From a virus: a stretch of 64,000 nt of DNA. The position numbers were made by a program, and so were the translations under genes. The DNA is taken from the IMG/VR virus record IMGVR_UViG_3300046171_000155; one strand, given 5' to 3'. Below, piece by piece: positions 36,214-64,000 of the stretch (positions are counted from its first letter, which is position 1; each line of letters starts with the position of its first letter). The notes under the pieces were generated by a model, which saw nothing but the letters and a program-made list of their open reading frames with translations, made no database searches and was not told the DNA's origin.

Positions 36214-38223
36214 TTAACCCTCGCAGGCCCGACATTCATCGCCACCTTCAATTGGTTCGTACTCCACTTCACCTTTTAGATGCATCATAAGATCTTCATA
36301 ACCACCTATGTACTTGCCCTCCAGATAAATTTGAGGAACTGTCTTGACCTTTCGTCCTGTAACTTCTGCAGCCGACTTTCCAATCTCTTCAAGGTCGACG
36401 TAGTCATATTCTATGCCGCGTAATGACAGTTCCTCTGCGGCCATTTTGCACCATGGACAGTCTTGCTTTCCATAGAGTAGTGTTCGGTTGTCGTCTTGTA
36501 ACGCCACCCGTTCAACTTTGTCAGATACCGTCTCCGCACGAGACTTTGCCTCGGTGCGTAAATAGTATAGTCCCTTGAGACCTTTCTTCCATGCGTTGAA
36601 GTGTACTTTATTGACATACCGCTTCGGTGCACCTGACGGGAAGAATAAATTTACTGACTGACCCTGACAGATATATTGCTGTCGGTCAGCCGCGTGTGTT
36701 ACTACCCAGTTCTGGTCTAGTTCTTGAGCGGTCTTGAATACCGCCTTCTCTCCTTCGTTAAGGAATGGTAGGTGTTGCACCGACCCTTTTTTAGTAATGA
36801 TACTAGACCATGTAGATTCGTTGTCGTGACCCTTTTCTTGCAACAGACTGGTAAGATACGGATTCTTCACTAAAAACGAACCAGCGCGAGTTCTGTGCGT
36901 GTAGGCGCATGCCTTACTTGGTTCAATAGATGGTGATGTAGACAGAATAACTCCAGACGATGCATTCGGTGCGATCGCTAATAAGTGAGAGTTTCTGCGT
37001 CCAGTACCTTCTCCGTCTAGGTACTCACCACGTTCTTTTGCCAATAGTTCTGTTTCAGCAACAGCTTCTTCTGAGATGTGAGAAAAGACCACTTGATTTA
37101 TTTCACGTGCCTTGTCGGATTCCCAAGATACACCGTGTTTTTGTAGGAGTGAATGGAAACCCATTGCTCCAAGTCCAATGCTTCTTTCACGTGCCGCCGA
37201 ATAACGGGCGCGGGAAATACTATCTGGCGCATGACCGATGAAGTATTCGAGAACGTTATCCAACATACGAATAAGATCCCGCACGATATTAGTGTCTTTC
37301 CATTCATCATAATATTCTAAGTTTAGTGAAGACAAGCAACACACCGCTGTCCTCTCAGCGGAAGTAGGTAAGTGTATTTCGTTACATAGATTTGATCCGT
37401 GGATGCGCAGACCCTTCTCTTTGAGAGACATCGGTAGACCACGATTCGCGGTGTCGATGAAGTTTAGATATGGTTCGCCAGTTCGGAAACGAATCTCAAG
37501 AATGCGTTCCCATAGTTTACGTGCGTTGACAGTGTCTTTTACTGCACCGTCTTTTGGATCACGCAAATCAAAATCTGTGTTGTTCATTACAGCAGCCATG
37601 AACTCATCGGAGATGTTGATCGCATTGTGGATGTTCAGCGCCTTACGTTGTACGTCGCCTGTAGGAATGCGAATGTTTAGAAACTCCATGATGTCTGGGT
37701 GTGATATGTCTAGGTATGCCGCATAAGACCCCTTACGCGTTCTCCCTTGACGATACGCAATCATGTCTGCGTCTACAGTATGCATGAACGGAATAGGTCC
37801 TGGAGCAATGTCAGAGACGGTTCTTACGTCTCCCCAGTGACCGCCTACCCCACCGCCCATAACAGACAACCAACGTAACTCTGAAGAGTGCTCGATTAGT
37901 CCTTCGAGTGTGTCTGGAACATAGGTTAGAAAGCAGGAGATGGGAAGACCTTTGCCTTTGGTTTCACCGTTCTTTGGGGCATTAGACAGTACAGGCGATG
38001 CAAACATGAACCACTTTTTGCTTACATACTCGTAGAGACGTTCTGCAAGGCCTTCGTCTACAACACCCTCATATCGTGACCATGCGATCGCCGCTCTGGC
38101 ATAGGCATCTTGCGGAGAGTGTTCTCCATCCATCATGTAAAAATCTTTCAACATACCCACAGCGTAGTCAGTCAATAGATCGTCACGATCATAGTGTATA
38201 TCAATCATATTATTGTTGCTCAA
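36214..38223 (-). CDS. nrdA: Ribonucleotide reductase class Ia alpha subunit with inserted glutaredoxin domain
   Basis: ISCF, SNLCNEI, VCCLSS, APNASS, LYYLR; CPWC...TVPQI Grx domain; C-terminal ECRACEG. Confidence 0.95.
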   Translation of the reverse strand: MSNNNMIDIHYDRDDLLTDYAVGMLKDFYMMDGEHSPQDAYARAAIAWSRYEGVVDEGLAERLYEYVSKKWFMFASPVLSNAPKNGETKGKGLPISCFLTYVPDTLEGLIEHSSELRWLSVMGGGVGGHWGDVRTVSDIAPGPIPFMHTVDADMIAYRQGRTRKGSYAAYLDISHPDIMEFLNIRIPTGDVQRKALNIHNAINISDEFMAAVMNNTDFDLRDPKDGAVKDTVNARKLWERILEIRFRTGEPYLNFIDTANRGLPMSLKEKGLRIHGSNLCNEIHLPTSAERTAVCCLSSLNLEYYDEWKDTNIVRDLIRMLDNVLEYFIGHAPDSISRARYSAARERSIGLGAMGFHSLLQKHGVSWESDKAREINQVVFSHISEEAVAETELLAKERGEYLDGEGTGRRNSHLLAIAPNASSGVILSTSPSIEPSKACAYTHRTRAGSFLVKNPYLTSLLQEKGHDNESTWSSIITKKGSVQHLPFLNEGEKAVFKTAQELDQNWVVTHAADRQQYICQGQSVNLFFPSGAPKRYVNKVHFNAWKKGLKGLYYLRTEAKSRAETVSDKVERVALQDDNRTLLYGKQDCPWCKMAAEELSLRGIEYDYVDLEEIGKSAAEVTGRKVKTVPQIYLEGKYIGGYEDLMMHLKGEVEYEPIEGGDECRACEG

Positions 38224-38616: not shown

Positions 38617-38805
38617 CTATTTTTTGAACTTTTTTGGTAGGATTCGACGTAAAATTTCTACGTTCTTTTTGCGCTTGTTCTTGCGATCACCCTTCTTCCG
38701 AACGATCACAGTAGAGGAGTCGTCTCCAGCGCCAGGGACTCCTGAAGTGTTGTTTGTTGGTACATCTTCGCTGAACTGCTTTTCAAATTCTTTGAATGAC
38801 TTCAT
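38617..38805 (-). CDS. Small putative internal head protein
   Basis: CTS-like MKSFKEF...FSE then DVPTN. Confidence 0.6.
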   Translation of the reverse strand: MKSFKEFEKQFSEDVPTNNTSGVPGAGDDSSTVIVRKKGDRKNKRKKNVEILRRILPKKFKK

Positions 38806-39395
38806 TTAGCAATCTCGTTCGCCGTGAATAGTACTCTGTGTCCAGTTCGCATATGGACGCCTTCATAGACAGGAATACCTAAAACATCGTAACATAAATT
38901 ATTTTCTACAACGCGAACCTTGTCGTCCTTTCGTACAACTTCATGGCATTGGTCTGTCATAGAATCATTTCGCATCCTATACATGCCTTGTCCAAGGTTG
39001 CCATCTTCCAACACATACCATCGGGAATTCTCTAATAGAACGTCCATGATATCGATACCAGTTTCTTCGTGTATCTTTTGTAGGTTTTCGTCAGAGAGTT
39101 CTCCGTGTTCTTTGATCAGTGCGAGTGCTGCACCATAACGTGCGACCACAGATGATCCGCCTGGTGCCTTTGCCATGAGTTTCTTTAGATTGAATACGAG
39201 ACGATGAAATGCGGTATAGTGTGATCGGTATGCGTCACGATTATCCATCGTGTCCATTGAGAAACTTTTGATCTTGTTTCCGTCGGCGTCAATGATTCCC
39301 GCTTTGTATGCGCCTGTATCCTCGAACTTAGTGACAAGTAGTTTTAGAAAACGAATTGTATAGACTAGATCAGCCGCTGATTTTAAGATTCCCAT
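38802..39395 (-). CDS. Conserved T4-like hypothetical protein
   Basis: DLVYTIRFLKLL...AYKAGIID..G, YT.FHRLVFNLKKL. Confidence 0.75.
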   Translation of the reverse strand: MGILKSAADLVYTIRFLKLLVTKFEDTGAYKAGIIDADGNKIKSFSMDTMDNRDAYRSHYTAFHRLVFNLKKLMAKAPGGSSVVARYGAALALIKEHGELSDENLQKIHEETGIDIMDVLLENSRWYVLEDGNLGQGMYRMRNDSMTDQCHEVVRKDDKVRVVENNLCYDVLGIPVYEGVHMRTGHRVLFTANEIAK

Positions 39396-39751
39396 CTAAG
39401 TTCTCTCAATTTACTCACTACATGTTTGTCCATTTTGATGCCAGTGATATCGTCATTTTTTATTGCGTTTAGAAAAACGAGAAAGGGCTTCAAAGTGGGC
39501 CACTGTTCTAGGGGTATCTTTAGCGCTAACATCTCAATGCCAGCTTCATGCCCGAAGACATTGAAGATGACGATGAGATGATTCAGTATAAGTCTTTCCG
39601 ACAAATTACCGTTCTGATGATACCTGTTGATGAGTCGTTTAAGATATTTGAACCTCTTTAGATCATCAAAAAACTCATCACCATCAATACATGTTGGATT
39701 GTAGTAATGCTTTGCTGCATACACCACAAGGTTCTTATTGTTCAATTTCAT
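39383..39751 (-). CDS. Conserved T4-like hypothetical protein (DUF7207-like)
   Basis: YYNP.C....F.DDLKRFKY.KRL, ERLILNH. Confidence 0.75.
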   Translation of the reverse strand: MKLNNKNLVVYAAKHYYNPTCIDGDEFFDDLKRFKYLKRLINRYHQNGNLSERLILNHLIVIFNVFGHEAGIEMLALKIPLEQWPTLKPFLVFLNAIKNDDITGIKMDKHVVSKLRELRWES

Positions 39752-39798
39752 ACCGTGAAACTTAAAGATTATGTTTCAGATATTTAGTGAAGCAATAA

Positions 39799-39996
39799 TT
39801 AATCGTCTTCAGGTTCTTCTACGTCTTCAACTACAGGCGCTGGTTCAGGTGCTGGAGCAGGGTTCTTTGCACCATGCCACTCTGCAATCTCTTCGTGAGA
39901 AAAGTTTTGAACCTTCAACAACTCGCCAGTCCTTGCGTCAGACCAACCTGCTTTGACAGGGACCGCGTCTTTACACCACTTAGGGGCCTTAATCAT
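39799..39996 (-). CDS. Hypothetical protein
   Basis: PKW..DA....GW....TGELL. Confidence 0.6.
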   Translation of the reverse strand: MIKAPKWCKDAVPVKAGWSDARTGELLKVQNFSHEEIAEWHGAKNPAPAPEPAPVVEDVEEPEDD

Positions 39997-39998
39997 GA

Positions 39999-40784
39999 TT
40001 ACTTTCCTTTTACTGGATTGACGACTGACTTATCGCCATTAGATAGATTGTCTGCACCGCTTCGTGCAGGTGCTTGTTTCTTGACTGCTTTAGCCGCAGC
40101 GAAAGTCTTAGTGTGACCGTCTTCTTCGTTGTCTTCGATTTTCTTATCAGACTTCTTGTGCTTGGCAATGACTTCTTTGTCATGCTTAGAAGAGTGGTCG
40201 TCATACTTCTCTGGAGCAAGTGCGCCTTTCTTAGGGTTCGCAGCTTCTGAGATTGCGTTCCATAGAGACTCAAAAGAATCTGTTAGATCGATATCTAGAG
40301 ACTCACGTTGATGTTTCTTCCAGTCGTCCATAGACAACTTACCACCAGCACGTTTGTAATCTGCGTACTTCTGAGAAGGAGTCTGAGAATCTTTCTTAGG
40401 GGCAGCAGGGGCAGGGGCAGGTGAGTCTTTCTTTTCATCATCGGCTTTATTGATCGCAACCTTGTCCGCTTTCGCAGCAGCCTTTGCAAGATCAGCAGAT
40501 ACTTCGTCTACTTTACCGCCTTTCTTCTTGGCATCGATAGCATCGTCTGTTGCGGCACGCTTCTTATGTAGGTATTCGTCAGAAGAATCTACATCGCCGT
40601 CGTTATCGATGTCCTTGTCGTCACGATTCTTGAACTCTTTATCGTTCTCTTTATCGTCTACTGGATCAAGTTTCTTGCCTTCTTTCTTAGGATGTGTTTT
40701 CCCGCAACCCTCATCTAGTTCGGCGTTACGCTCGGAGACCATTCCCAAATACGCCTCCATAATTTTATTGATATCTGACATCAT
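39999..40784 (-). CDS. Charged putative internal/virion protein with EF-hand-like DIDNDGDVD motif
   Basis: DKDIDNDGDVDSSDEYL; LDE/VDE/ISE-type protease sites. Confidence 0.6.
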   Translation of the reverse strand: MMSDINKIMEAYLGMVSERNAELDEGCGKTHPKKEGKKLDPVDDKENDKEFKNRDDKDIDNDGDVDSSDEYLHKKRAATDDAIDAKKKGGKVDEVSADLAKAAAKADKVAINKADDEKKDSPAPAPAAPKKDSQTPSQKYADYKRAGGKLSMDDWKKHQRESLDIDLTDSFESLWNAISEAANPKKGALAPEKYDDHSSKHDKEVIAKHKKSDKKIEDNEEDGHTKTFAAAKAVKKQAPARSGADNLSNGDKSVVNPVKGK

Positions 40785-40799
40785 AGTCTCCGTTGGTTA

Positions 40800-41111
40800 T
40801 TATGCATCAAAAAAAGTTTTGATGACTACACCGGCAAAGATTGTTGCAGATAATGTAATAATGTATTGCATTACTTTTACAGTCTTGCCTTGTTCTTGAA
40901 CGTTATCTTCGAGATCGTCCATTCGTTGAGAGAAACGATTCATTCGTTCAAAGTGTTGCGAGTTCGCTTTCTCAATGTTAATAAGCTTTTCTTCCGCTCT
41001 TGCAAGATCAATCATTGCATCGGAAAGCTTGTCTATTTTGTCCTCGATTCTTGCGAGGCGTTGCTCTTCACGTTGCACATGCTCTTGTAAAATTAGGTTG
41101 TTGTCTGCCAT
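40800..41111 (-). CDS. Coiled-coil protein with C-terminal TM
   Basis: RL.RIEDKIDKLSDAM..LARAEEK. Confidence 0.65.
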   Translation of the reverse strand: MADNNLILQEHVQREEQRLARIEDKIDKLSDAMIDLARAEEKLINIEKANSQHFERMNRFSQRMDDLEDNVQEQGKTVKVMQYIITLSATIFAGVVIKTFFDA

Positions 41112-41222
41112 GTTTCGATCAGCCCATTAGTATTGATAATATAAGTCATATGATAATTATAATTTAATGTAATATAATTAGTTGACTTACGGTTAAGGTT
41201 TATGTTTATTTATAACGATCAA

Positions 41223-41540
41223 TTACCATGCGCGACACGACCAATAGCGTGCCTTCCACTTCGGGCCAGGATCTGCACAATTGTGCCTAGCTCGAAAACT
41301 TTTACGACGAGCGGGATTGCTTTTCTTAATTTTCATATTCGGATCACCGAATGAGACCTTCACGACATTTCCCTTTTCGTTTTTTGTATATACGTAGAAC
41401 TTCTTAGACCCACCACGTACAGGTTTGTTCAATGTAACAGTCTTACCCTGATACTCTGCTTCGGTCAGTTCTAACTCTTCGTTGAGAGACGCACACGCCT
41501 CACAACATCTTTCTTCTACATACTGTTTAAACTTTTTCAT
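41223..41540 (-). CDS. Putative internal head protein (VSFGDP family)
   Basis: CTS-like MKKFKQYVEE; EAEYQGK.V.LNKP, KVSFGDP, SFRARH.C, YWSC. Confidence 0.7.
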   Translation of the reverse strand: MKKFKQYVEERCCEACASLNEELELTEAEYQGKTVTLNKPVRGGSKKFYVYTKNEKGNVVKVSFGDPNMKIKKSNPARRKSFRARHNCADPGPKWKARYWSCRAW

Positions 41541-43789
41541 TTTGAAAGTAATGCCTTTGCTTTGGCACGATCGTGGAAAGCGAATGTATAAGACTTACCG
41601 TCTTTTTCGTCCTTGACCACATAACCAGATTTGGTCATCTTAGTGATCTTACCCATTCTCTTATCGCCATTCTTAGGTTCATAGTAATCAACGTCTCGTC
41701 CAACGTTTATTGAGTTCTTTGTCTCTGCGCCCATGCCTTTAGTTGCAAGTGTACGGTAGTTTTCATCAATAAATTCGACTTCTTCACGCATAAGTTTACC
41801 ACCTTTCACTCTGAATCCGTTATCCTTTAGGATCTTAGTGATAGTAGTCCTCTTCGTAAAGTCGTCCATGTCTTTCAACATTTTGGTCAAACCCATGAAT
41901 GCTTTGTCTTGGACATTGACACTAGAGTTATTGTGGATTGCACGAACGTATGCTGCAGCCTTCTCGAACTCAATGCCCTTACTCTTGTGCTTCAAGAGTT
42001 CTTTAGACATCTTCATGAAGTCTACTGCTTCGTCAAGTTCGATATCTTCTTTTCTTGGGGTGCGACCTTTGAGTAGTGAATGAATGGCTTTCGACTCTTT
42101 GCCTTTGATACGGCGATCTTTTTTGATCTCTTTATCGACAGCGCCTTTGTTGTACTTGGATTCACCAAGTTCGACTGACTCATTTGCAGAACGTTTTTTC
42201 AGGGCCTTATCAAAGTGCTTCTTTTGTCGTCTGCTTTTATCCGCTTTATCTAAGTCTTTCAGAGCTTTGATGCCGTGACCACCTTCTGGGGATTTCAAGT
42301 GCTTCTTTGTATTCTTCGTGGCAGAGTTTCTCGCGTCAACAGTATTTTTACTTGCTTTATCCCTTGCCCTTTTCAATAAACTAGTAGAGATTTCATCTAG
42401 GTTTTCTTCGACCGACTCATTTGCTTGTTGAAGTGCCGCTTGTACTGCCTTGTGTTTAGACAGACCTTTCTTCATTTTCTCAATCTCGCGAACAGCACCT
42501 GTCATATTACCGCCCATTTTTTCGGCAGTTTTGATTGCTTTGATAAGTAGGTTTCGGTCAGCGATCTTGTTGTGAATACCCATATCAGAAAGTTTTGCTT
42601 CAGTGACTTCTTCAACGTGACGAATAACAGTATATTTGCCACCAACCTTATCGACTTTGTTACCCATCGACGCCTTTTTATCTGCTGCAGACTTAGACAT
42701 AGGACCAGTCGTTCTACCTGACTTCTTGTCGGTTGGGTGAGTGTACTTTACTGCATACTTCTGTTCTTCTAGATCTGCAGATTCCATCTTGTAGTTGCCA
42801 GTCTTTCTCTGCTTTTTCATCAGAGCATGCAACTTTGCCAATTTGTCTTTTTCGTTTGGCGTTAGGGAGTCACGAGTCTTCTTTGCTTGAATACGGTTTA
42901 CTGACTTACCATATTCTTTTGTTGATTCTCTAAACTGATTACTGTGGATTTCTATGCCATGACCCTTAACTGCTTTTTGAATTGATTTGTCATCAAGTTT
43001 GCTTGGGTCTTCTCGTGTTCCGATTGTTACAGTTCCGACCCACTTGTTTCCTCTGGATGGCGATATTGTGTTTGTAACAAGTCCGCCCATCTTCTTAACA
43101 GCATCTCGCAAAGCAATTCTGTCTTGTTTCCACTCATCTTTTATCGCACCAAGGTCCGATGGTTTAGGGCTATTCGGTAACTGGTCCCTGTAATTGAATT
43201 CAACATCAGTGACCTTCACTAAACCTTCTTCTAAGTTCGATGCAGTTTCTTCTTTCTTAAGGCCGCCCATCGCATTACCATACATCTTTTTCTTCATGCT
43301 CTTATATCTTGCAGAAGAATCTGGACCTTTGCTTCCTGATGCCTTACGTTCCTTTGCCTTATCTGCCGCGATTTCTGCTGCAGTTGGCTTACGGTATACT
43401 TCATCAAGTTCGCTGGCATTACCATAAGAAGACCTTCCTATGATAGCACGTAGGAAGTCATTCAACTTACCCTTTGGTCCGCTGATAGAAACGTGCCCGC
43501 CTTGAGCCTTTGCCTTTAGACCAAACCGTGTTGCGCCTGAAGCAACTTTGTCTGGCGCAGTTGTCTTGATCTTTGACGTTGCTTCGTTGACTGACTCAAG
43601 CGCACCAGCAGGTTGACCCTGTTTCTGGTTTTGGTCTAGTGAGGCAGGTTGATTCGGATACTGGGTCTTCATTTTCTTAACAGCATCACGACTATTATTC
43701 GCCTTGGTCTTAACGGTCATAGAGTCGCGGCCGCTTCCTACCTTGACGAAGAATATCTTGTTCTCTCTCAATTCAAAAAAATCTTTCAC
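41537..43789 (-). CDS. Modular basic putative internal polyprotein
   Basis: CTS-like MKDFFELRE; basic modules separated by acidic linkers ending (L/V/I)xE. Confidence 0.65.
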   Translation of the reverse strand: MKDFFELRENKIFFVKVGSGRDSMTVKTKANNSRDAVKKMKTQYPNQPASLDQNQKQGQPAGALESVNEATSKIKTTAPDKVASGATRFGLKAKAQGGHVSISGPKGKLNDFLRAIIGRSSYGNASELDEVYRKPTAAEIAADKAKERKASGSKGPDSSARYKSMKKKMYGNAMGGLKKEETASNLEEGLVKVTDVEFNYRDQLPNSPKPSDLGAIKDEWKQDRIALRDAVKKMGGLVTNTISPSRGNKWVGTVTIGTREDPSKLDDKSIQKAVKGHGIEIHSNQFRESTKEYGKSVNRIQAKKTRDSLTPNEKDKLAKLHALMKKQRKTGNYKMESADLEEQKYAVKYTHPTDKKSGRTTGPMSKSAADKKASMGNKVDKVGGKYTVIRHVEEVTEAKLSDMGIHNKIADRNLLIKAIKTAEKMGGNMTGAVREIEKMKKGLSKHKAVQAALQQANESVEENLDEISTSLLKRARDKASKNTVDARNSATKNTKKHLKSPEGGHGIKALKDLDKADKSRRQKKHFDKALKKRSANESVELGESKYNKGAVDKEIKKDRRIKGKESKAIHSLLKGRTPRKEDIELDEAVDFMKMSKELLKHKSKGIEFEKAAAYVRAIHNNSSVNVQDKAFMGLTKMLKDMDDFTKRTTITKILKDNGFRVKGGKLMREEVEFIDENYRTLATKGMGAETKNSINVGRDVDYYEPKNGDKRMGKITKMTKSGYVVKDEKDGKSYTFAFHDRAKAKALLSK

Positions 43790-43794
43790 TTTAT

Positions 43795-43974
43795 TTAACT
43801 TCCTCTTGATGCGCCTCGAAATACCTTCGTTCCCGCAACTGGATTGACTGATTTAACTTTACTATTTATAGGGTTGAAATTAGTGCCACCGTAGTTGTTA
43901 TCGGTTGCCTGTTGCAGTCTTTCTTTTTTTGCAGCAGACATCTTCTTGTTACGTGGTTTCTTCGATTTGCTCAT
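43795..43974 (-). CDS. Small basic protein (contains late promoter 43863-43870)
   Basis: Hand-translated MSKSKKPRNKKM... Confidence 0.5.
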   Translation of the reverse strand: MSKSKKPRNKKMSAAKKERLQQATDNNYGGTNFNPINSKVKSVNPVAGTKVFRGASRGS

Positions 43975-43991
43975 ACGTTACCCTTATTTAA

Positions 43992-44183
43992 TTATTCTAC
44001 TGCGTAACCCATCTTCTTCAATTCTGCCTTAGAGAAAGATGGTGGTGGTTTACTGAAAAAGTCAGCCGACTTCTTGATCTTGTCTAGTCGCTTCTGCGAA
44101 CCAAGACCATGTTTCGCCGCACGAGCGGAAAGACGGTCTTGTGCAGACCGCCTTGCTTCTCTTATTTCAGTAAACTTTTTCAT
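43992..44183 (-). CDS. Small putative internal head protein
   Basis: CTS-like MKKFTEIRE, then basic. Confidence 0.6.
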   Translation of the reverse strand: MKKFTEIREARRSAQDRLSARAAKHGLGSQKRLDKIKKSADFFSKPPPSFSKAELKKMGYAVE

Positions 44184-44185
44184 AA

Positions 44186-45416
44186 TTATCCTAATGCAAC
44201 AGAAATACCAAATCGATCATCCTCGGCACCATCAAATGCAGTTAGTTTCGTTGGTTGAGCAGAAAGATCATTCGCGTCATAGACATAGACTGAACCAGAC
44301 CTAAATCCGTTATCGCCGTCAAACTGTGCACCAACAACAATCTGATCACCACTAACGGCAATTGAAATACCAAATCGATCATCCGCAGCACCATCAAACG
44401 CTGTTAGTTTCGTTGGTTGAGCAGAAAGATCATTCGCGTCAAAGACATAGACTGAACCAGATGCAGACCCATTGTCGTCGTCAAACATTGCACTAACGAA
44501 GATCTTATCTGCATTAGCAGCAACTGAGTAACCGAAGATATCACTCGCAGCACCATCAAACGCTGTTAGTTTCGTTGGTTGAGCAGATAGGTCATTAGCG
44601 TCAAAGACATAGACAGAACCAGAATTATATCCATTGTCGTCGTCGTTTTGCATACCAACAAAAATCCTATTGTCGGTAACAGCAACTGCGGTTCCAAAGT
44701 AATCACTCGCAGCAGCATCAAACGCTGTTAGTTTAGTCGGTTGAGCGGATAGATCGTTCATATTATAAACGTAAACTGAACCAGAACTAGTTCCGTCGTC
44801 GTCGTCACTAGGTGCACCAACAACAAGATTATTGTCGGAAACAGCAATTGCTTGCCCGAAAACGTCGTAATCAGCAGCATCAAACGCAGTTAGTTTGACC
44901 GCTTGCGCTGTTAAGTCGTTTGCATCATAAACATAGACTGAACCAGAAAAATTGGGATCATCATAAAGTGCACTAACAACAATCTTATCATCCGTAGCGG
45001 CAAGTACCTCTCCGAATCGGTCTTCTGCATCACCATCAAACGCTGTTAGTTTAGTCGGTTGTGTAGATAAATTGTTTGCGTCATAGACATAGACTGAACC
45101 AGAACTAGATCCATCGTCGTCGTCTCCCCAAGCACCAACAATTATCTTATCTGCATTAGCAACTACTGAGTTTCCAAAGTAATCACTCGCAGCACCATCA
45201 AACGCTGTTAGTTTAGTCGGTTGTGTAGATAAATTGTTTGCGTCATAGACATAGACTGAACCAGAGTTAGATCCATCGTCGTCGTCAAACCGAGAACCAA
45301 CTACCACCCAGTTTGCAGATGGTGCTGGTCCTACATATGGTGGGTTGTCTGCGTCAACACCGGCAATTACTTGACCAGGCCTGAAACACAGCACCCGCTA
45401 AAATTTGATTTGCCAT
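44186..45416 (-). CDS. FG-GAP repeat beta-propeller virion protein (indel near 45385)
   Basis: Tandem ~56-aa repeats DDDG..SGSVYVYDANDLSAQPTKLTAFDGA..D.FG; true start MANQILAGAVF at 45416. Confidence 0.8.
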
Positions 45417-45442
45417 TTTTGTTAAAAACCTCTATTTGAGTT

Positions 45443-45716
45443 TTATGCTAAGTCTTTGTCATGGTTGAGGCCGCCTTTCTTCTTCTTGACGATGAAAGCG
45501 TTAACCCTTGCCATTCCCCATTGTTGTGGTGTGGTTCCTGGACGGTGCCCTGTTTTCCACGCCGCCATACCACGATTATAAACTTTTTTAAGTGTACCCT
45601 ACAGAGATGCCAGACTTCTTTGCCTTTGCAGCAAGACCGTCTGGACCTTCTTCTAGGTCAACACTATCATATACTGAATATCGCTTTTCTTCAAGATAGT
45701 TCTTAAAAGATATCAT
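45443..45716 (-). CDS. Putative internal head protein, GHRPG family (extra G near 45597)
   Basis: MISFKNYLEE...LEEGPDGLAAKAKKSGISV/GTLKKVYNRGMAAWKTGHRPGTTPQQWGMARVNAF. Confidence 0.7.
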
Positions 45717-47116
45717 GCCAATTTCCTTATCATTCCGGCAAGCACTTTTGCGTCAATATCTAGACTGAACTTGCGAATAGTATCAGCAGCGGCAAACTCT
45801 GGAGATGTGTATTTACCTTTACCCATCTCACGTTTGATGTGTTGCGCTACTTTCTTATACTTGTCCTTATTTATAGTTTTTGAACCGAGGCGACTCATTA
45901 GATCAGTCACCCAGTTCTCGAAAATATCTTCTTGGCCTGGTGTGTCTTTGAAGTAACTTCTTGCGTAACTTGTCAGTACCTTCATCACCCGCGCCATGTT
46001 CTTCTGGACACAGTCTGGTACCATCTTGTTACCTTTCTTCTTCATACCGACCTGCTTGTAACCGTCCCAACAATCTTCGTCATACATGTCCTTGAATGAC
46101 TTGGTATACTTGGATGGTTTAGTCTTGGCAGTCTTATCTCCAGGCGCAGGTTTATAGGCAGAAGAATCGTCATCTGCTTTCTTACCATGTTTCTTGAAGT
46201 GTGCATCGCGCTTTGATTTGGTGGACTTTTTCAGTCCGGCGTGGTATCGTGCAGGCTGAGTTCCTTCGCGATCTTTGATGTCTGGATCTTGTTTCTCAAC
46301 AATCTCGACAGCATCTAACCACTTACGCATTTTCTTACCGTCAGATGTTTCTACGATGACATAGTTTGCACCTAGGACGGATACAGTAGCAATCTCATCA
46401 CTTTCTTTGATCACTACTGTATCACCAACTCCAAACAGTTCACCCGAAACATATTGTTCACGAGTTTCTGATACTGTTTCTAGTTCTAGGTGATTACGGA
46501 ATTCACTAGCTTCTTTCAGACCCATGCCCTTACGCACATCGTTGAATAATGTACGTGCGTCTTTATCAGACATGGACTTAGGTGTGCCCTGAGAGAATGC
46601 AACAAAGTCATTCTTCTGTGCGTTCTCTCTTTGTTTAGAGGCAGACATGCCTTCAACTCCTGCAGAATCTGGATCTCTCTTTCCTGCAGATACTACCTTG
46701 ATGCTTTTGAAGTTGTAAAAACCATGTCTTGCTTTTTGTCCGTTGTATTTGTTCAACAGGACTTCGAATTCTGTAATACGGTCTGCACCGACAACCATAG
46801 TGACTGACTTGTAACCTTGGTTGTACAGTGTAACCATTGCGTTGATTGCGGTCTTCACCGACTTATCAACCATGACATTTCGCGCATGTTTTGGAAACAT
46901 CTTGCGAGTATGTTTTACTTTCTGTTCGTATGTAAGTGGATTCTTCTTGGAGTCCGAAGACTGCGACATGAAGATCTTATAGTCAGACTTACCAGACTTT
47001 TGCGCCAAAGTGTCCATCACTTTGCCGTGTCCGACTGTAGGTGGATTCATACGACCGAATGTAAAATATACTTCGCGTTCTTCCTCGACTAGGTACTGGG
47101 AGAAGTTCTTAATCAC
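45713..47116 (-). CDS. HIGH-superfamily nucleotidyltransferase ('cytidyltransferase'), NMNAT/PPAT-like, with C-terminal modules
   Basis: FTFGRMNPPTVGH, KNPL, VVGADR, SAG.RDPD, MSASK; CTS-like MIKNFSQYLVEE. Confidence 0.85.
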   Translation of the reverse strand: MIKNFSQYLVEEEREVYFTFGRMNPPTVGHGKVMDTLAQKSGKSDYKIFMSQSSDSKKNPLTYEQKVKHTRKMFPKHARNVMVDKSVKTAINAMVTLYNQGYKSVTMVVGADRITEFEVLLNKYNGQKARHGFYNFKSIKVVSAGKRDPDSAGVEGMSASKQRENAQKNDFVAFSQGTPKSMSDKDARTLFNDVRKGMGLKEASEFRNHLELETVSETREQYVSGELFGVGDTVVIKESDEIATVSVLGANYVIVETSDGKKMRKWLDAVEIVEKQDPDIKDREGTQPARYHAGLKKSTKSKRDAHFKKHGKKADDDSSAYKPAPGDKTAKTKPSKYTKSFKDMYDEDCWDGYKQVGMKKKGNKMVPDCVQKNMARVMKVLTSYARSYFKDTPGQEDIFENWVTDLMSRLGSKTINKDKYKKVAQHIKREMGKGKYTSPEFAAADTIRKFSLDIDAKVLAGMIRKLA

Positions 47117-47565
47117 TTCTGTACACCACCTTGTCGCTTGGCACGTTTGCGTTCCATCTCTTGCTTACGTACCGTTTTGATTAGTTTACGAGCGACTCTA
47201 TCGATGCGATTTTTTACTGCAGGTTTGTCTAGTCTCTTCTCGATTTCTTTTTTACGAGCTACAGTAAGATCACTCTTAGGAATACCTTTGGTAAGTTTCT
47301 TAGCAAACTGCATCCTTGCTTGACGACGGGCACGTTTCTTCAACGTGTCCATGTTAGCAGTCTTTCTCTCTGCACGTTTTCTTGCCATTGCAATACGAGC
47401 TTTATTTCGCTTCATGCGCATGCCAAGTTTACGTCGTTGAGAAGCGTCTAATGCTTCTGAAGTGTCTATAGACGTTTTTCTTTTCTTTGCGTTATATGCT
47501 AACTGTCCATCACCTGTCTGAGTGTAATCGACATTAACAAATTGTTTAAATGACATTGGTGCCAT
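47113..47565 (-). CDS. Highly basic putative internal/core protein
   Basis: MSFKQF, SEALD..QRRK, Arg/Lys-rich. Confidence 0.65.
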   Translation of the reverse strand: MAPMSFKQFVNVDYTQTGDGQLAYNAKKRKTSIDTSEALDASQRRKLGMRMKRNKARIAMARKRAERKTANMDTLKKRARRQARMQFAKKLTKGIPKSDLTVARKKEIEKRLDKPAVKNRIDRVARKLIKTVRKQEMERKRAKRQGGVQK

Positions 47566-47594
47566 CTAATAATCCTCTATTGGTTTATTCCATG

Positions 47595-48815
47595 TTATCT
47601 ACGGGCTGAATCCCAACCCTTTAATATATCGGATGAAAAGTTGTTGTATGAAAATTCCATACGGTCAACCAATTTCACCGCGTCACCACCAAGTGTATCA
47701 ATTGCAACGTATCCTTCTTCGCCAGTCACTTTGTAACCATTAGAAGTTTTTACGAAAGTATCAATTGACTTAAGTTTGTCTAAACTATTTATAAGCTTTA
47801 GTTTCGCAAGTACAATCAATTTTTGCAATTCGAACATTTTTACTAAGTTTGCGCGATTTTTAGGTGAGAAGAATGCCATTTCGTCTTTCATTTTAGCAGT
47901 CCACGCATCCTTACCGCGTTGAGATTTCTTACTCGCAATCTCTTTCTTGTAATACGCTTGCCTATTACTTATAAGACCGTTAACATGTCTAGTTGAGTCT
48001 GGTATCACCGTTCCTGCACGAACAAACTTATTATTGTATGTCTCGATCGCCTGTGCGAACTTAGGGTTTTCTGCCACAGTCTTGAGAGTAGAAGAAGCAG
48101 TCTGTCTGAAGAGTGTACCGATCTGCGACAATATCTCGTTGACATCTTTAGTCTCTCGTTCAGACATCGTCGCATTAGTCACGTCGGTCAACATCGCATC
48201 TTGCGACCACACGTTGCGTGACTTTTTCAACTTACTTACATCAACACCGTAGTCCGCTTTCATGTTCTCAAAAGATGTACCAGTGTATGTTGTGTGCCAT
48301 ACGATACCGATCTTAGCAGCGCGTACTTCTTTCGCTTGATCATAGGGAACTGCGTATGCGATTGTGTTTGGGTGAAACACGCTGTACTTCTGACCGTCAA
48401 TGGTCTTAGTAGTCACATCGCCACTGCCAAACAAAAAGTCGCCTTGTATGACGCCTTTGATGCCGAGCGCAGGAAGGTATCGCAAAGCATCTTTCAACTT
48501 AGAGTTTAGATCACCCGAAGTGTCCGCATCGATATCTGCGTCTGTCTTGTAGACCTTTGGGTTCTTGTTGAAGATGCCTTTCTTAGCGACAAAGAACTCG
48601 CCGTCTGAAGGGTCAGTACCACAGAAGATCGCAGGCGCACCGTCCCACTTTACAGAGATGCGTCCCTTTGATGTGCCAGATAACATGTCACGTAGTCCAC
48701 GCAAGGCGTTGATCGCCTGACGTGTGCCGTCAACTCCACCGTACAAAACTTTGTCCTCGATGTGAGTCATGTGTGTATTCTTCTGTTCTGTAATAAAGTT
48801 GCTAAAGGTTTCCAT
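47595..48815 (-). CDS. DUF6267-like protein with ligase-superfamily motifs
   Basis: METFSNFITE start; KWDG, QGDFLF, EGYV, VKLVDR. Confidence 0.7.
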   Translation of the reverse strand: METFSNFITEQKNTHMTHIEDKVLYGGVDGTRQAINALRGLRDMLSGTSKGRISVKWDGAPAIFCGTDPSDGEFFVAKKGIFNKNPKVYKTDADIDADTSGDLNSKLKDALRYLPALGIKGVIQGDFLFGSGDVTTKTIDGQKYSVFHPNTIAYAVPYDQAKEVRAAKIGIVWHTTYTGTSFENMKADYGVDVSKLKKSRNVWSQDAMLTDVTNATMSERETKDVNEILSQIGTLFRQTASSTLKTVAENPKFAQAIETYNNKFVRAGTVIPDSTRHVNGLISNRQAYYKKEIASKKSQRGKDAWTAKMKDEMAFFSPKNRANLVKMFELQKLIVLAKLKLINSLDKLKSIDTFVKTSNGYKVTGEEGYVAIDTLGGDAVKLVDRMEFSYNNFSSDILKGWDSARR

Positions 48816-48816
48816 A

Positions 48817-50226
48817 TTAGTATAGTTTCGCAAATGGTCCAAAGAGTTCACCCTTTTTCTGACCAAGATATGATATGTCAGAAAGTAAATCACTCAATTT
48901 TTTTACATCTCGTATAGAGAATATTTCGTTTAGAAGATCTAACTGCTGTAGTTTACTGTTCGCAACAGCGCGTTCGTTATCATTCTTCGCGGTGTCAAAT
49001 ACTGCAGCAACATTCTCAGTGAATTCTTCTGCGGTCTTGATGCTCATATCAACTTTACCCGTCGCCTTCAAAGACTTGAATCGTTTGATATGAGTCTCTT
49101 CATCATTCAGAAACTCATCTATATTCTTCGGATAGTTTCTCCAAGATCTCCATCGTTCAGTTTCTCTGATGCCGTATGCTCTAAGTGTCTGACTTACCAT
49201 ATCAAGCGGTGCCTTTCCTAGTCGAGCAGCTCGGGCACTAACGTCAGTGCCTTCCAATTTCAGGTTGTTGTACCCTCGTGAGTTCTGTCGAATCTGAAAA
49301 GCAATGGTGATCTTGCTGGATGATATCTTGAATGATGATTCTGTGTTTTCAAAATATCCTTTACCGTTAGTCTTTAGGTTGAGTTTCGCTTCGTCAAAAC
49401 TAAATGCGTAATCATCGCCGTCAAACACTTCTTCAGTATCAAAGTTCACCAACTCCCATCGAGCGGTCTTACCCGACATCTTTTTGAGTGAGATACCTAC
49501 GATCTGACGTTTGTGAAACAAGTCTTGCAGAATCACGTTGAACTCTGTAAGCGATGTACTGTTGTCTAGTATCTTCGCGTCTAGGTTTCGCTTGATTCTT
49601 TCTAGGTCTGAAACTAACCAGATATCCGCTGGGTTCCATGTGTCTTTCTGATTGATGCCGTAGAGGTTCTTGCACCGTTCAGTAATGTAGTCCATGAAAC
49701 CATCATCGCGACTGTAGTGACCGTACTGTGTATTGCCAACTTTCTGTTGCGTCAACTTCTGTTGCTCAAAGAAAACATTCTCCCAATACTCATCCATTCC
49801 AGGGTATTCTTCTAAAAGTTCTGCTCGGTACAGTTTCAGAAAAGTCTCTTTATTTGAGTACCCGTTGTTCTCGATACCTTTCTTAATCGCGAGCAGACTT
49901 GCTCGTTCTTGCATCGCAGTGGTCTTGCCGTCAGGTTGACCGAGACCAGCGCCACCACGACCACTAAACTGAGACTTGTCAATCTGTGACCAAGTGTATC
50001 CATTGAAGATGGGAGCATACTTCGAACCAGACTTTGCAACTCTGGTAATTGCAGTCATATCTTGTTTGCCGACTGCAGTTACGAACTTCTTTACTTCGTC
50101 AGTATGATTGACCTTCTGAGAGACATTGCCCTTGAATTTGACATCATCACCGTTAGTGATACTCTCAGCGAGCATATTCAAATATGGTTTTGCAAAACCA
50201 AATTCATTCGCTCCGAGCATTGCCAT
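48817..50226 (-). CDS. PD-(D/E)XK nuclease-like protein
   Basis: TAMQE, WNPADIW, GISLKK; late promoter at 50265-50272. Confidence 0.55.
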   Translation of the reverse strand: MAMLGANEFGFAKPYLNMLAESITNGDDVKFKGNVSQKVNHTDEVKKFVTAVGKQDMTAITRVAKSGSKYAPIFNGYTWSQIDKSQFSGRGGAGLGQPDGKTTAMQERASLLAIKKGIENNGYSNKETFLKLYRAELLEEYPGMDEYWENVFFEQQKLTQQKVGNTQYGHYSRDDGFMDYITERCKNLYGINQKDTWNPADIWLVSDLERIKRNLDAKILDNSTSLTEFNVILQDLFHKRQIVGISLKKMSGKTARWELVNFDTEEVFDGDDYAFSFDEAKLNLKTNGKGYFENTESSFKISSSKITIAFQIRQNSRGYNNLKLEGTDVSARAARLGKAPLDMVSQTLRAYGIRETERWRSWRNYPKNIDEFLNDEETHIKRFKSLKATGKVDMSIKTAEEFTENVAAVFDTAKNDNERAVANSKLQQLDLLNEIFSIRDVKKLSDLLSDISYLGQKKGELFGPFAKLY

Positions 50227-50267
50227 GTGATAGTCTCCGTTAGTTAGATAAGTATAACAGATACTAT

Positions 50268-50946
50268 TTATATGTCAAGCGTATTCCCAGAATTTTCTGC
50301 GTTGTATTTTGCTATTGTCTCGCGCAAGGGACGGACCCACGTATCTCTATGTTCGATAAAGATTTGCGGTTCGTGGTTGTCAACTGAGACAATCGTCACT
50401 AACTGAGTGATTGGTTGTTTAGTACGCTCTTCCCACATGATTGCGTAGGCGGACTCTTGCATGAAGTAATTGGTGATCCAATCCTTTCGTTTGGGTTTCA
50501 TAGATGTTTTGAAATCAATGATAGAAAGACTACCATCGAACTCAGCAACGCAATCGACGCGACCAGCCACTCCCAAGTGGTTTGAGTAGAGAGGGGCTTC
50601 CTGTGCGATATACTCGACCGATACGATTATCCAAAATGGGCTTAAGATCACCAAAGCTACTAATAATGTCTGGAGTATATCCATCTTTAAAGTTCTCCTC
50701 GTTGTTGATATACTTCTCTACGATCTCGTGGACTCGCGTCCCACGCGAGGATGCGCGGTGCGAGATACGATTCGCTTCTTCATGACCTACTCTTGCTCGC
50801 CACTTTGCAATAGATTCACGGGACAGTATCGAAAGAACTGTTGTGATGGATGGAAGGTTGATGCCTTCAGGTGTGCGGTACTGTCGCCCCTTCTCAGTGG
50901 TGACAGCATTCATTTCGGTTAATTCTGTAAATACGTGTTCAAACAT
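50268..50946 (-). CDS. Cas4-like/PD-(D/E)XK exonuclease (extra base near 50607)
   Basis: PSITTVL, RGT.VH, QE..LYS, AGRVD, IIDFKTS, Q..AY across two frames. Confidence 0.85.
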
Positions 50947-51352: not shown

Positions 51353-52766
51353 TTAGTCGCACCCAAGATCTTGACGCGACAATTCATCGTTGTTGATAGG
51401 ACAGTTGCCACTTGGTAACGACTCTGGCACATATCGCATCAACTCTGGATCATGCAAACCGTTCTCAAGGAACGCAACAAGGTTCGCAATCTCATCTTCG
51501 GTCAAGTCGAGCGGCGTAAACCGATAGTCAAGATCTGAGATCTCTACTTGCGGATGTTGGGGGACAGCATCGACTTTGTATCGCACGACATCTTCTACAC
51601 TAGAAAACGAAGCACCGTGACCGAATACGGTAGTATCTATAAGGTTGTAAAGAGGCGGAACTTTGAATGCGAACTTCTCCATCTCATCACCAGTGAACCC
51701 ACCACGACCCTCTCTAGTCGCATCGTTGACTTCACCTACTGTATCTTCCCAGATGTCCAGATCATGGAACCCGACAGTCATAAACACTTCGTCAGCCATC
51801 GCACCGACAGGGTGACGACAAGGCAGGTCCGTTGTGACATGTGTGACAGTTGCCTTTACCAAAGAACACCTCTGCGCCTGCGACTTCAGATTCAGTCATC
51901 GCAGTTTCGTCGCCTTTCAAGTATGCTTGGAAGGGTGCTTGGTTCGCAAGAATGGTTCGTTCGTATGCAGCGATTGCTAGTGCAGTTGCCTCTAACATAT
52001 CGTCGGGTTCTGCAATACCATACGCAGCCTCATACATCTCACGATAAGTTTCGTTGGTGCGCAGAATAGAGTCATCGGTGTCGCCCATACGATGCACACC
52101 TAGACCCGCAACTGCTTGTGTCTCTAGACCAGCGAAGTTACGCAGATTTGCTTCTTTAGGAGTGCCTTCTGTGAAGTGACGATCGGGATCAATACCGACG
52201 TTTACATTACCAGCGATGACGTTACCGAACTGACCGTTCCACAACATCACTTCTTGGTATGCGGTGTTCAATACTGTAGGTGACGTAACGGGTTGTACGT
52301 CGATGTCTTCTGGATTGACACCAGCTGCAATCATGCGGTGATCGAAACCGACACCACCCTCACCGATACCCTGACGAATACCAGACTTGAATCCGTTCTG
52401 TGCGTTGTGACAAGATGCACAAGAGAAAGTATCTTCCATACCCGCGATGTTGCCGTCGGTGATACCAGTCTCATGATAGATCAACTGACCGAGCGCAACT
52501 TTCTCTGCAGTAATAGGATTGCTTGGATCTTGTGGAATGCTGTCGAAGTCATCACTCTCTGGGAGAATGTACTCTTCATACGAACCGATCGTTGATGTCG
52601 AATCAAGTAATGTGAGCAGATTGTCACGCGCCTCGACTGCAGGGTCAACTGGAGTTACGGTTGGGGGAGTTACGACTACGGGGTTGGGAGCGGATGCGTT
52701 ATCTGCACCCCCTGAACACGCACTCAGGAGTGCAGTAGACACAGCTACAGTTAGTAGTTTCTTCAT
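51353..52766 (-). CDS. Di-heme cytochrome c peroxidase (CCP/MauG family) lipoprotein (extra C near 51812)
   Basis: Lipobox LSAC; CASCH and CHTCH; FKVPPLYN, FGHG, LT.DE..NLVAFL in the second frame. Confidence 0.85.
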
Positions 52767-63248: not shown

Positions 63249-64000
63249 TTATCCTGCAGAGATTTTGAGTGTTCCCAAATCGTTCCAAAGTTGACCCGCA
63301 TTCAATGGGTCTGTTGTAGGTAAGTTACTGAAAACGACTGTCGCGCCGCTTGCAGTAAGATCTGTCATCGTTACGCCAGCACCAAACGTCCAATCGTTTG
63401 TAGTGTTGTACGTTAGCGAACCAGCAGCAGATGTACGAATGTCAATTCCGTACTGGGTTGCAACGGCAGAATTACCACCTGTTGCTGCAAGAACGATAGT
63501 ATTGTTCGCATTCGCCTTAGCGCCACGACCGAGCGCCAAAGAAGCACTACCCGTTCCACCTGCGAACGGGCCAACTGCTGTGGTTTCTGTTCCTGTTGTT
63601 ATAGAGGAATTGGTACCAATGGCAACACTTGACGCTGAAGCTTCGGCGTTTTGTCCGATTGATATGCCTTGCGCACCTTTCACTTCAGTATTAGATCCAA
63701 TTGCAATACCATCGGTATTTGTATTAGTGTCAGCAGATAATCCAATTGCTATAGCATTTGTTGATAATGCCTGTGCACTATTTCCTAATGCTACAGAAGA
63801 CGTACCAGTGGCATCTGCCCCATTACCAATTGCGACTGAACGCGAAGATGACGCTACTGCCGAGGTGCCCATCGCAATAGTGTCTGCCTGAGATGAAGTC
63901 GCAGAACGACCAATAGCAATTGCATCTTCATAAGTGGCATTCGATCCTCTGCCCAATGAAAGGGTAAAGAGCGCAGTTGCGTTAGCATCATAACCTATCG
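63249..64000 (-). CDS. Tail fibre/adhesin with YadA-like head repeats (partial)
   Basis: (S/A)(V/I)A(I/L)G 14-aa repeats; C-terminal LPTTDP..AGQLWND.GTLKISAG. Confidence 0.8.
   Translation of the reverse strand, partial: IGYDANATALFTLSLGRGSNATYEDAIAIGRSATSSQADTIAMGTSAVASSSRSVAIGNGADATGTSSVALGNSAQALSTNAIAIGLSADTNTNTDGIAIGSNTEVKGAQGISIGQNAEASASSVAIGTNSSITTGTETTAVGPFAGGTGSASLALGRGAKANANNTIVLAATGGNSAVATQYGIDIRTSAAGSLTYNTTNDWTFGAGVTMTDLTASGATVVFSNLPTTDPLNAGQLWNDLGTLKISAG

Follow-up and report, generated by a model that had tools for sequence, protein, structure and literature searches.

A gene block of a marine T4-like phage codes for eight proteins with leaders resembling the T4 capsid-targeting sequence

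The 64,000-nucleotide stretch of DNA analyzed here (hereafter the window) belongs to the IMG/VR virus record IMGVR_UViG_3300046171_000155, and its source is a marine T4-like myovirus with seven scattered tRNA genes in its genome. Between 38.6 and 50.3 kb the window harbors a block of 16 genes, all on the minus strand and seemingly transcribed late, of which eight (the tagged genes) code for proteins that begin with a leader of the T4 type. The T4 capsid-targeting sequence has been described for T-even enterobacterial phages, and has served engineers as a tool. Among public records, Phage C48C1 (OQ984149, 156 kb, classified in GenBank under Kyanoviridae) is the closest; 47% of the window region is matched in it at 84% DNA identity, and the gene order is shared. 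C48C1 is a T4-like myovirus, with genes for the portal, scaffold and major head protein and for the late sigma factor and its co-activator, and it also codes for a gp21-type head maturation protease (Pfam Peptidase_S77, E 1.2e-40).

Followed in the direction of transcription, the first tagged gene (47595..48815, minus strand, as are all block genes) codes for a DUF6267 protein of 406 amino acids (aa; Pfam 2e-107) with the leader METFSNFITE; its start at 48815 is an internal ATG of the longest open reading frame (ORF) and is confirmed by homologues. The following gene (47113..47565) codes for a very basic 150-aa protein (isoelectric point (pI) 11.6), starting at 47565 or 47556 with the N-terminus MAPMSFKQF, whose variant leader, ..MSFKQFVNVD, has Asp in place of Glu. 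A predicted 467-aa adenylyltransferase of the HIGH family (NMNAT/PPAT-like by Pfam and PHROG; 45713..47116) uses a GTG start and carries the leader MIKNFSQYLVEE. The next product, of 42 aa (45588..45716), has the leader MISFKNYLEE and is truncated by an indel, such that the gene is the 5' part of one coding for about 90 aa, the remainder of which lies in another frame at 45443-45568. Two tagged genes have short leaders, namely MKKFTEIRE, in agreement with homologue N-termini, on a basic 63-aa protein (43992..44183), and MKDFFELRE on a basic modular protein of 750 aa (41537..43789) with a GTG start and linkers of the ESVxLxE type. A basic, Cys-rich 105-aa protein (41223..41540; phrog_7595) has the leader MKKFKQYVEE, and the last gene of the block (38617..38805) codes for a basic 62-aa protein which resembles T4 gp61.1 and carries the extended leader MKSFKEFEKQFSE. 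All but one of the eight tagged proteins are basic, with a pI of 9.3-11.6, as are the T4 internal proteins. A search of seven block proteins against NCBIfam gave no match.

The initial annotation of the window had listed eight such N-termini and assigned them to the T4 capsid-targeting type. All eight are present on the minus strand at the starts given above, and all available sequence tests are consistent with the assignment. They are not equally canonical, since four fit a pattern derived from T4 and four are variants with low matrix scores. The strict pattern was taken from T4 MKTYQEFIAE alone (M, two or three residues, F/Y, two residues, F/Y, I/L/V, one residue, E) and was scanned against every ATG-, GTG- or TTG-initiated ORF of at least 40 aa in the six frames of the window. 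It matches four starts only, 41540, 45716, 47116 and 48815, all of them within the block. On a scoring matrix built from relatives with the window left out, the four canonical leaders score 24-34 bits, and the next best of 2438 candidate starts scores 10.7.

In the T4 leader, residues 4 and 7 are the main determinants of targeting and residues 8 and 10 those of processing, and Asp at position 10 allows targeting while processing is blocked (PMC9026906). Aromatic residues at positions 4 and 7 are strict in the four canonical leaders, that of the 47116 gene having one extra residue. The two short leaders (43789 and 44183) have an aromatic at 4 and a hydrophobic residue at 7, the 38805 leader has aromatics at 4 and 7 with a longer tail, and in the 47565 leader the register is shifted. 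An aliphatic-x-Glu end is found in the canonical leaders (VEE, LEE, LVE, ITE) as well as in the short ones (LRE, IRE), is not clear in the 38805 protein (FSE) and is absent in the 47565 protein (VNVD). All four variants are backed by conserved variants in homologues. The short form, MK[TD]FxELRE, begins many different modular proteins in related contigs, from GTG or ATG starts. Relatives of the 38805 protein begin with MKTYEEFMKQFDEE, MKTFQEFMKQFEEE and similar sequences, which are near T4's own leader with a longer tail. Relatives of the 47565 protein read ..SFKQFVNVDY, with Asp at the expected Glu, and the C48C1 orthologue begins MLSFKQFVSE, a strict match.

The pattern is also confined in other genomes. 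At the ORF starts of the complete C48C1 genome it finds six genes, all within 57-68 kb, five of which are syntenic with the window block; the sixth, CDS0081, adjoins the block and has no window counterpart. A back-translated DNA form of the pattern was run on whole genomes, with the reversed pattern as control. In T4, the positive control, this form finds three sites, which by annotation are ipII, ipIII and gene 61.1; in C48C1 it finds four block genes and one off-pattern site, and in the 174-kb genome of S-SM1 the only strict-pattern site is SSM1_190. The reversed control gives 0 matches in these three genomes, and 1-2 matches in P-HM2, Melnitz and HTVC008M, a number equal to the pattern's own. 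Among 80 related loci (viral contigs drawn from at least 599, gathered via the DUF6267 protein), the strict pattern occurs at 188 sense-strand and 2 antisense starts. The strict-pattern ORFs of these loci fall into 23 clusters without detectable similarity beyond the leader, two of which consist of short ORFs only.

T4 gene 61.1 (NC_000866 18966-19130), which lies beside the primase gene 61 and codes for a hypothetical protein of 54 aa, begins with MKTFKEFIKE, a perfect leader of the targeting type. Its product is 36% identical over 53 aa to the 62-aa window protein (38617-38805; E 5e-4 in a small search), and could be an internal protein that has escaped notice although it is conserved throughout the T4-like phages.

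The leader of the DUF6267 family was examined in homologues chosen by similarity of the protein body only. Among 54 distinct N-termini, position 4 is F in 52, position 7 is F or Y in 50, and all 54 have I or L at position 8 and E at position 10, while positions 2, 3, 5 and 6 vary freely. At the constrained positions six Leu codons, three Ile codons and both codons of Phe, Tyr and Glu are in use; synonymous codons are thus used freely where the residue is conserved, and selection acts on the peptide rather than on the DNA. A search of 1.84 billion cluster representatives gave 2552 DUF6267 clusters. Among the best 150 of these 2552 representatives, a strict leader immediately precedes the domain in 44 and a loose one in 7, a recognizable variant is present in many more, and 28 lack a leader. 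Both enzymes have P-HM2 orthologues whose starts, MSKNTH.. and MKKVYVTFGR.. (MSKNTHLEHLED, MKKVYVTFGRLNPP), coincide exactly with the ends of the window leaders.

Among cultured relatives, DLP_6, Melnitz and HTVC008M carry such leaders on several proteins encoded in the syntenic block. On the DUF6267 protein itself the leader is of the strict type in DLP_6 (MMKFTQFLAE), is present as looser variants only in Melnitz and HTVC008M, and is absent in the cyanophages S-SM1 (147295-148269) and P-HM2 (145134-146354), the cyanophage DUF6267 proteins having also gone undetected in virion proteomes. The tag on this enzyme seems to have been gained or lost per lineage. In C48C1, the 'cytidyltransferase' gene at 63448-64857 is annotated in GenBank from 63514, which leaves out the leader VIKNFSQYLLEE that is translated from the GTG at 63448; automatic start calls can hide leaders in this way.

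Published virion data bear on one of these proteins. SSM1_190 (cluster GC190) is 41% identical to the window transferase and begins MKKFSAFLNE, and T4-GC190, a 'cytidylyltransferase', is recorded with 25 peptide counts in purified S-SM1 virions in Table S8 of Sullivan et al. 2010 (PMC3037559). The same table lists further proteins of this block, GC1453, GC1454, GC1455 (7 counts), GC425 and GC426; SSM1_192 (GC1455) begins MLSFKELQEK. The leaderless DUF6267 protein, GC71, is absent from that list. One orthologue with a strict leader is thus a proven virion protein, and an untagged neighbor went undetected. The passages of Sullivan et al. 2010 that were consulted contain no comment on the GC190 leader. 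A literature search, covering largely papers outside subscription, turned up no account of capsid-targeting leaders in either cyanophages or T4-like phages of marine origin.

Two of the tagged proteins carry the hallmarks of enzymes. In the DUF6267 protein, K56, D58, G59, E367, G368 and K381 are invariant in 113 sequences (KWDG/KxDG, EG and K motifs), and correspond to motif I (KxDG, with the catalytic Lys), motif IV (EG) and motif V (K). Its structural model (pLDDT 93.8) is disordered at residues 1-9. In a wide VIA search, the best large matches of the fold are the RNA ligases REL1 (Z 8.2 over 196 residues), NgrRnl (8.0) and T4 Rnl2 (7.9), followed by Trl1 (7.7) and T4 Rnl1 (6.8), Z values near 8 being rated middling. 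Foldseek against the PDB gave no significant match, the top one being a DNA ligase at E 0.12. Owing to these middling and non-significant scores, the protein is named a probable RNA-ligase-fold covalent nucleotidyltransferase.

Alignment of the 467-aa protein with homologues (34 sequences, 332-630 aa) shows that its motifs PPTVGH and GMSASKQR are conserved, Pfam assigns CTP_transf_like at 1e-5, and Foldseek relates the model to NadM, PPAT and NadD (E 4e-5 to 1e-4, probability 1.0). The protein is thus predicted to be a HIGH-type adenylyltransferase, NMNAT/PPAT-like. The leader is followed by the adenylyltransferase domain, an SH3-like barrel and C-terminal modules that vary. In the model of the whole protein, disorder is predicted for residues 1-11, 274-286, 335-353 and 372-396, and the candidate cut sites LVE, IVE and IFE lie in or adjoin the segments 1-11, 274-286 and 372-396, the last within a few residues. 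The leader is disordered in both enzyme models, and PDB sequence searches with both proteins gave no match. PHROG 455 spans both enzyme families, and several of its representatives are fusions; natural fusions of a HIGH nucleotidyltransferase with a DUF6267 ligase-fold domain occur in P0180, P0205 and P0266. The shared family and the fusions argue that the two enzymes act together, in one pathway.

The 750-aa protein is built of segments that match relatives in permuted order. In one related contig (L023), window residues 575-669 correspond to subject residues 283-377, while residues 674-750 correspond to subject residues 206-281, and in another (L074) four segments are found in a different order. 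The segments end at recurring linkers of the type (K/N)ESV-x-L-x-E. The C-terminal module, NYRTLATKG.., is preceded by ..EFIDE in the window and by ..SLDE, ..PIVE or ..NDLDE in other contigs, and in two contigs (L031 and L032) it forms a separate 90-aa gene directly after the leader MKTFKELRE. Conversely, the module NKIFFVK.., which comes first after the leader in the window protein, is preceded elsewhere by ..ESVDLEE within longer proteins. Leader ends and internal linkers are thus interchangeable, as expected if both are protease sites.

The motif TATAAATA, which resembles a late promoter, is found 14 times in the window, where 1.85 occurrences would be expected. On the coding strand of the block, the interval from 41.2 to 51.4 kb contains six sites, of which four are internal to the block, one precedes its first gene and one precedes the tRNA-Ala gene. 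The site preceding the first gene (50265..50272, minus strand) lies 39 nucleotides 5' of it, overlaps a sigma-70-like site, and has a counterpart directly 5' of the homologous gene in C48C1. In C48C1, TATAAATA precedes the adaptor, sheath, tube, baseplate and fiber genes, and five sites lie in the block. This distribution suggests that the block is transcribed late.

The remaining eight genes of the block lack a leader. The first (48817..50226) codes for a 469-aa protein of phrog_1462, a family that assigns no function. An acidic FG-GAP repeat protein (44186..45416) has its true start at the ATG at 45416 and is affected by a +1 insertion near 45376. A very basic 59-aa protein (43795..43974) contains a TATAAATA site in its gene (43863-43870), and another site (41207-41214) lies upstream of five leaderless genes (38802..41111), which code for proteins of 103 aa, 261 aa (with a DNDGD motif) and 65 aa, a DUF7207 protein and a protein of 197 aa.

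Four single-base indels (net +1) distinguish the window from C48C1, at about 45376, 45598, 50607 and 51806, the former two being seen against other relatives as well. They split the FG-GAP repeat gene, the leader gene of about 90 aa, an exonuclease gene (50268-50946) and a cytochrome c peroxidase-like gene (51353-52766), and reflect either assembly errors or a decaying genome. The last of these genes, located between tRNA-Ala and tRNA-Ser, codes for a di-heme protein with a lipoprotein-type N-terminus; it is intact in C48C1 (473 aa) and is an unusual auxiliary gene for a phage. On the other side of the block, the gene at 36214-38223 codes for a ribonucleotide reductase large subunit with a glutaredoxin-like C-terminal extension (CPWC motif).

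The leaders of the block are, with good probability, T4-type capsid-targeting propeptides, such that the proteins that carry them would be enclosed in the head, cleaved by a gp21-type protease and leave with the DNA at infection. Packaging of the tagged proteins is likely, on the strength of the T4 analogy and of one published proteome; binding, cleavage, injection and function we infer from the analogy. As in T4, the 9-13 N-terminal residues would bind the assembling scaffold core, the aromatics at positions 4 and 7 making the contact through which the protein becomes enclosed in the prohead, and a gp21-type prohead protease would then cut after the Glu that follows an aliphatic residue and thereby remove the tag. 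The mature proteins would remain in the DNA-filled head and exit with the DNA. As aliphatic-x-Glu sites are found again at conserved linkers of the 750-aa protein and in the nucleotidyltransferase tail, both proteins would then be polyproteins from which small basic modules are released. The block would then represent the phage's set of head-internal proteins, composed of two enzymes, small basic proteins and shuffled modules.

The initial annotation had gone further, in describing the block as a head-packaged, injected effector cassette served by nearby late promoters and including two enzymes. Much of this account stands: the leader type agrees, TATAAATA sites lie before and inside the block, fold and motifs support both enzymes, the protease and scaffold are encoded in C48C1, and a tagged orthologue occurs in S-SM1 virions. 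The word effector is less well grounded, as much of the tagged mass is very basic, low-complexity and modular, and could equally represent DNA-associated head filling.

Several observations weigh against the targeting reading. Half of the leaders depart from the canonical pattern, and in one of them the cleavage position is occupied by Asp. The 64-kb window does not include the head module, and the presence of the protease is deduced from C48C1, a genome 84% identical in DNA. The GC190 orthologue is annotated in Syn9 and S-PM2 and was not detected in their virions (PMC3037559). T4 gp61.1 fits the pattern and is annotated as hypothetical only, so that a pattern match alone is no proof of packaging. 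The linker motif is about three-fold enriched in tagged over other ORFs, and a general test of BLAST segment starts against aliphatic-x-Glu sites gave about two-fold enrichment only; this test is diluted by ordinary proteins, and the explicit module examples are relied on instead.

Chance or compositional likeness to ordinary MK-rich phage N-termini would be the simplest alternative, as M-K starts are common and a loose pattern (F/Y..F/Y only) is equally frequent on the antisense strand. The strict pattern, however, shows the 188 to 2 strand bias, is restricted to the block in the window and reaches only one additional, neighboring gene in the 156 kb of C48C1, while its reversed control is empty in C48C1, T4 and S-SM1, albeit with the 1-2 matches in P-HM2, Melnitz and HTVC008M. 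Coincidence is therefore extremely improbable. The shared N-terminus might instead be a nucleotide-level cassette for translation start or recombination, or a tag for the membrane, for degradation or for another assembly. Gene shuffling by means of conserved regulatory cassettes (PeSLs; PMC4122927 and PMC2839356) does occur in T4-like genomes, and starts rich in Lys and Phe are A/T-rich. Yet the codons at conserved positions are free, the 5' regions differ among the genes, most of which are translationally coupled, and the conserved residues are the functional ones of the T4 leader (PMC9026906). The recurrence of a cleavage-type motif at internal module junctions and the tagged S-SM1 orthologue in virions also speak against these alternatives, which we consider very improbable.

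A more serious alternative contests function rather than targeting. The tagged proteins may be packaged as head-core or DNA-associated filling, namely scaffold accessories, charge-neutralizing peptides or ejection aids, and many of their fragments may leave the head, as do those of T4 gp22, gp67 and gp68. The lysine-rich, low-complexity and very basic nature of most of the tagged mass fits this proposal, as do the free shuffling of modules without recognizable domains and the cutting of T4 core proteins into fragments that are mostly expelled from the head. Nevertheless, two tagged proteins are predicted to be well-folded enzymes, their catalytic motifs being intact, the S-SM1 orthologue is kept in mature virions at 25 peptide counts (Table S8), and the T4 precedents Alt and IPI-III are injected and active in the host. 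Head filling in place of an effector role is rather unlikely, though for the basic modules a part in head structure or DNA packing is a serious alternative.

A bolder and doubtful extension is that in the marine T4-like clade (C48C1, Melnitz, HTVC008M-like and partly the cyanophages) tag and linkers together form a plug-and-play cargo system, with the ligase-fold enzyme and the adenylyltransferase as a core that acts at time zero. Were this the case, any gene or polyprotein module that gains a tag or linker would become virion cargo, evolution would proceed by module shuffling, and the injected proteome could be read from sequence; the enzyme core might, for example, repair cut RNA or restore a depleted nucleotide cofactor against host defenses.

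The T4 mechanism itself is known. New with respect to the searchable literature are the presence and breadth of the leader in the marine clade, the enzyme cargo, the short and Asp variants and the modular polyprotein architecture. The finding suggests that one address label is used across very abundant ocean phages, with relatives isolated on SAR11 and OM43, where it would mark a large and fast-changing set of virion-carried proteins, enzymes included. It would make packaged proteins predictable from sequence in T4-like phages that have not been cultured, and would provide a possible explanation for the 'cytidylyltransferase' in the cyanophage virion proteome of 2010. It also points to polyprotein processing as a route for loading many small modules, and offers concrete candidates for putative time-zero counter-defense functions in marine hosts.

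Among the nearest known counterparts are the internal proteins of T4, IPII and IPIII as well as IPI, whose capsid-targeting sequence MKTYQEFIAE is removed by gp21 (Mullaney and Black 1996, as reviewed in PMC9026906 and PMC3012670; T-even repertoire of Repoila et al. 1994, as cited in PMC12373910). Both systems use a leader of about ten residues with aromatics at 4 and 7, an aliphatic residue at 8 and Glu at 10, carried by otherwise unrelated, mostly basic proteins whose late genes are clustered in a variable region, and a T4-type protease and scaffold are encoded in the window's lineage too, as judged from C48C1. The window, however, belongs to a distant marine clade (C48C1, Melnitz, HTVC008M-like) rather than to the Tevenvirinae, and its eight tagged genes lie in one block. 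Its putative cargo includes two predicted nucleotidyl-transfer enzymes and the 750-aa modular protein, and its leaders include short, extended and Asp variants. S-SM1 GC190 is another counterpart, an orthologue of the window transferase (41% over the catalytic and barrel domains) with a leader, in a syntenic block beside the DUF6267 gene; it differs in having a spacer of 80 residues after the leader, and the DUF6267 protein of S-SM1 is leaderless.

Enzyme cargo has its precedent in T4 Alt, an ADP-ribosyltransferase packaged in about 40 copies, processed by gp21 at both ends and injected. Alt shares with the window enzymes, as predicted, the arrangement of a head-carried enzyme behind a short cleaved propeptide, whereas the window families, an RNA-ligase fold and a HIGH adenylyltransferase, are unrelated to it. 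In phiKZ, 201phi2-1 and SPN3US, the inner-body and ejection proteins contain several S/A-x-E sites at which a gp21-like protease cleaves them (PMC9026906, PMC5694885, PMC7411985). They resemble the predicted processing of the 750-aa protein in that large head-internal proteins with several Glu sites, redundant ones at the linkers included, give rise to fragments. In the window, by contrast, the motif is aliphatic-x-Glu, the leader is a decapeptide of the T4 type, and the small basic modules change order from one close relative to another.

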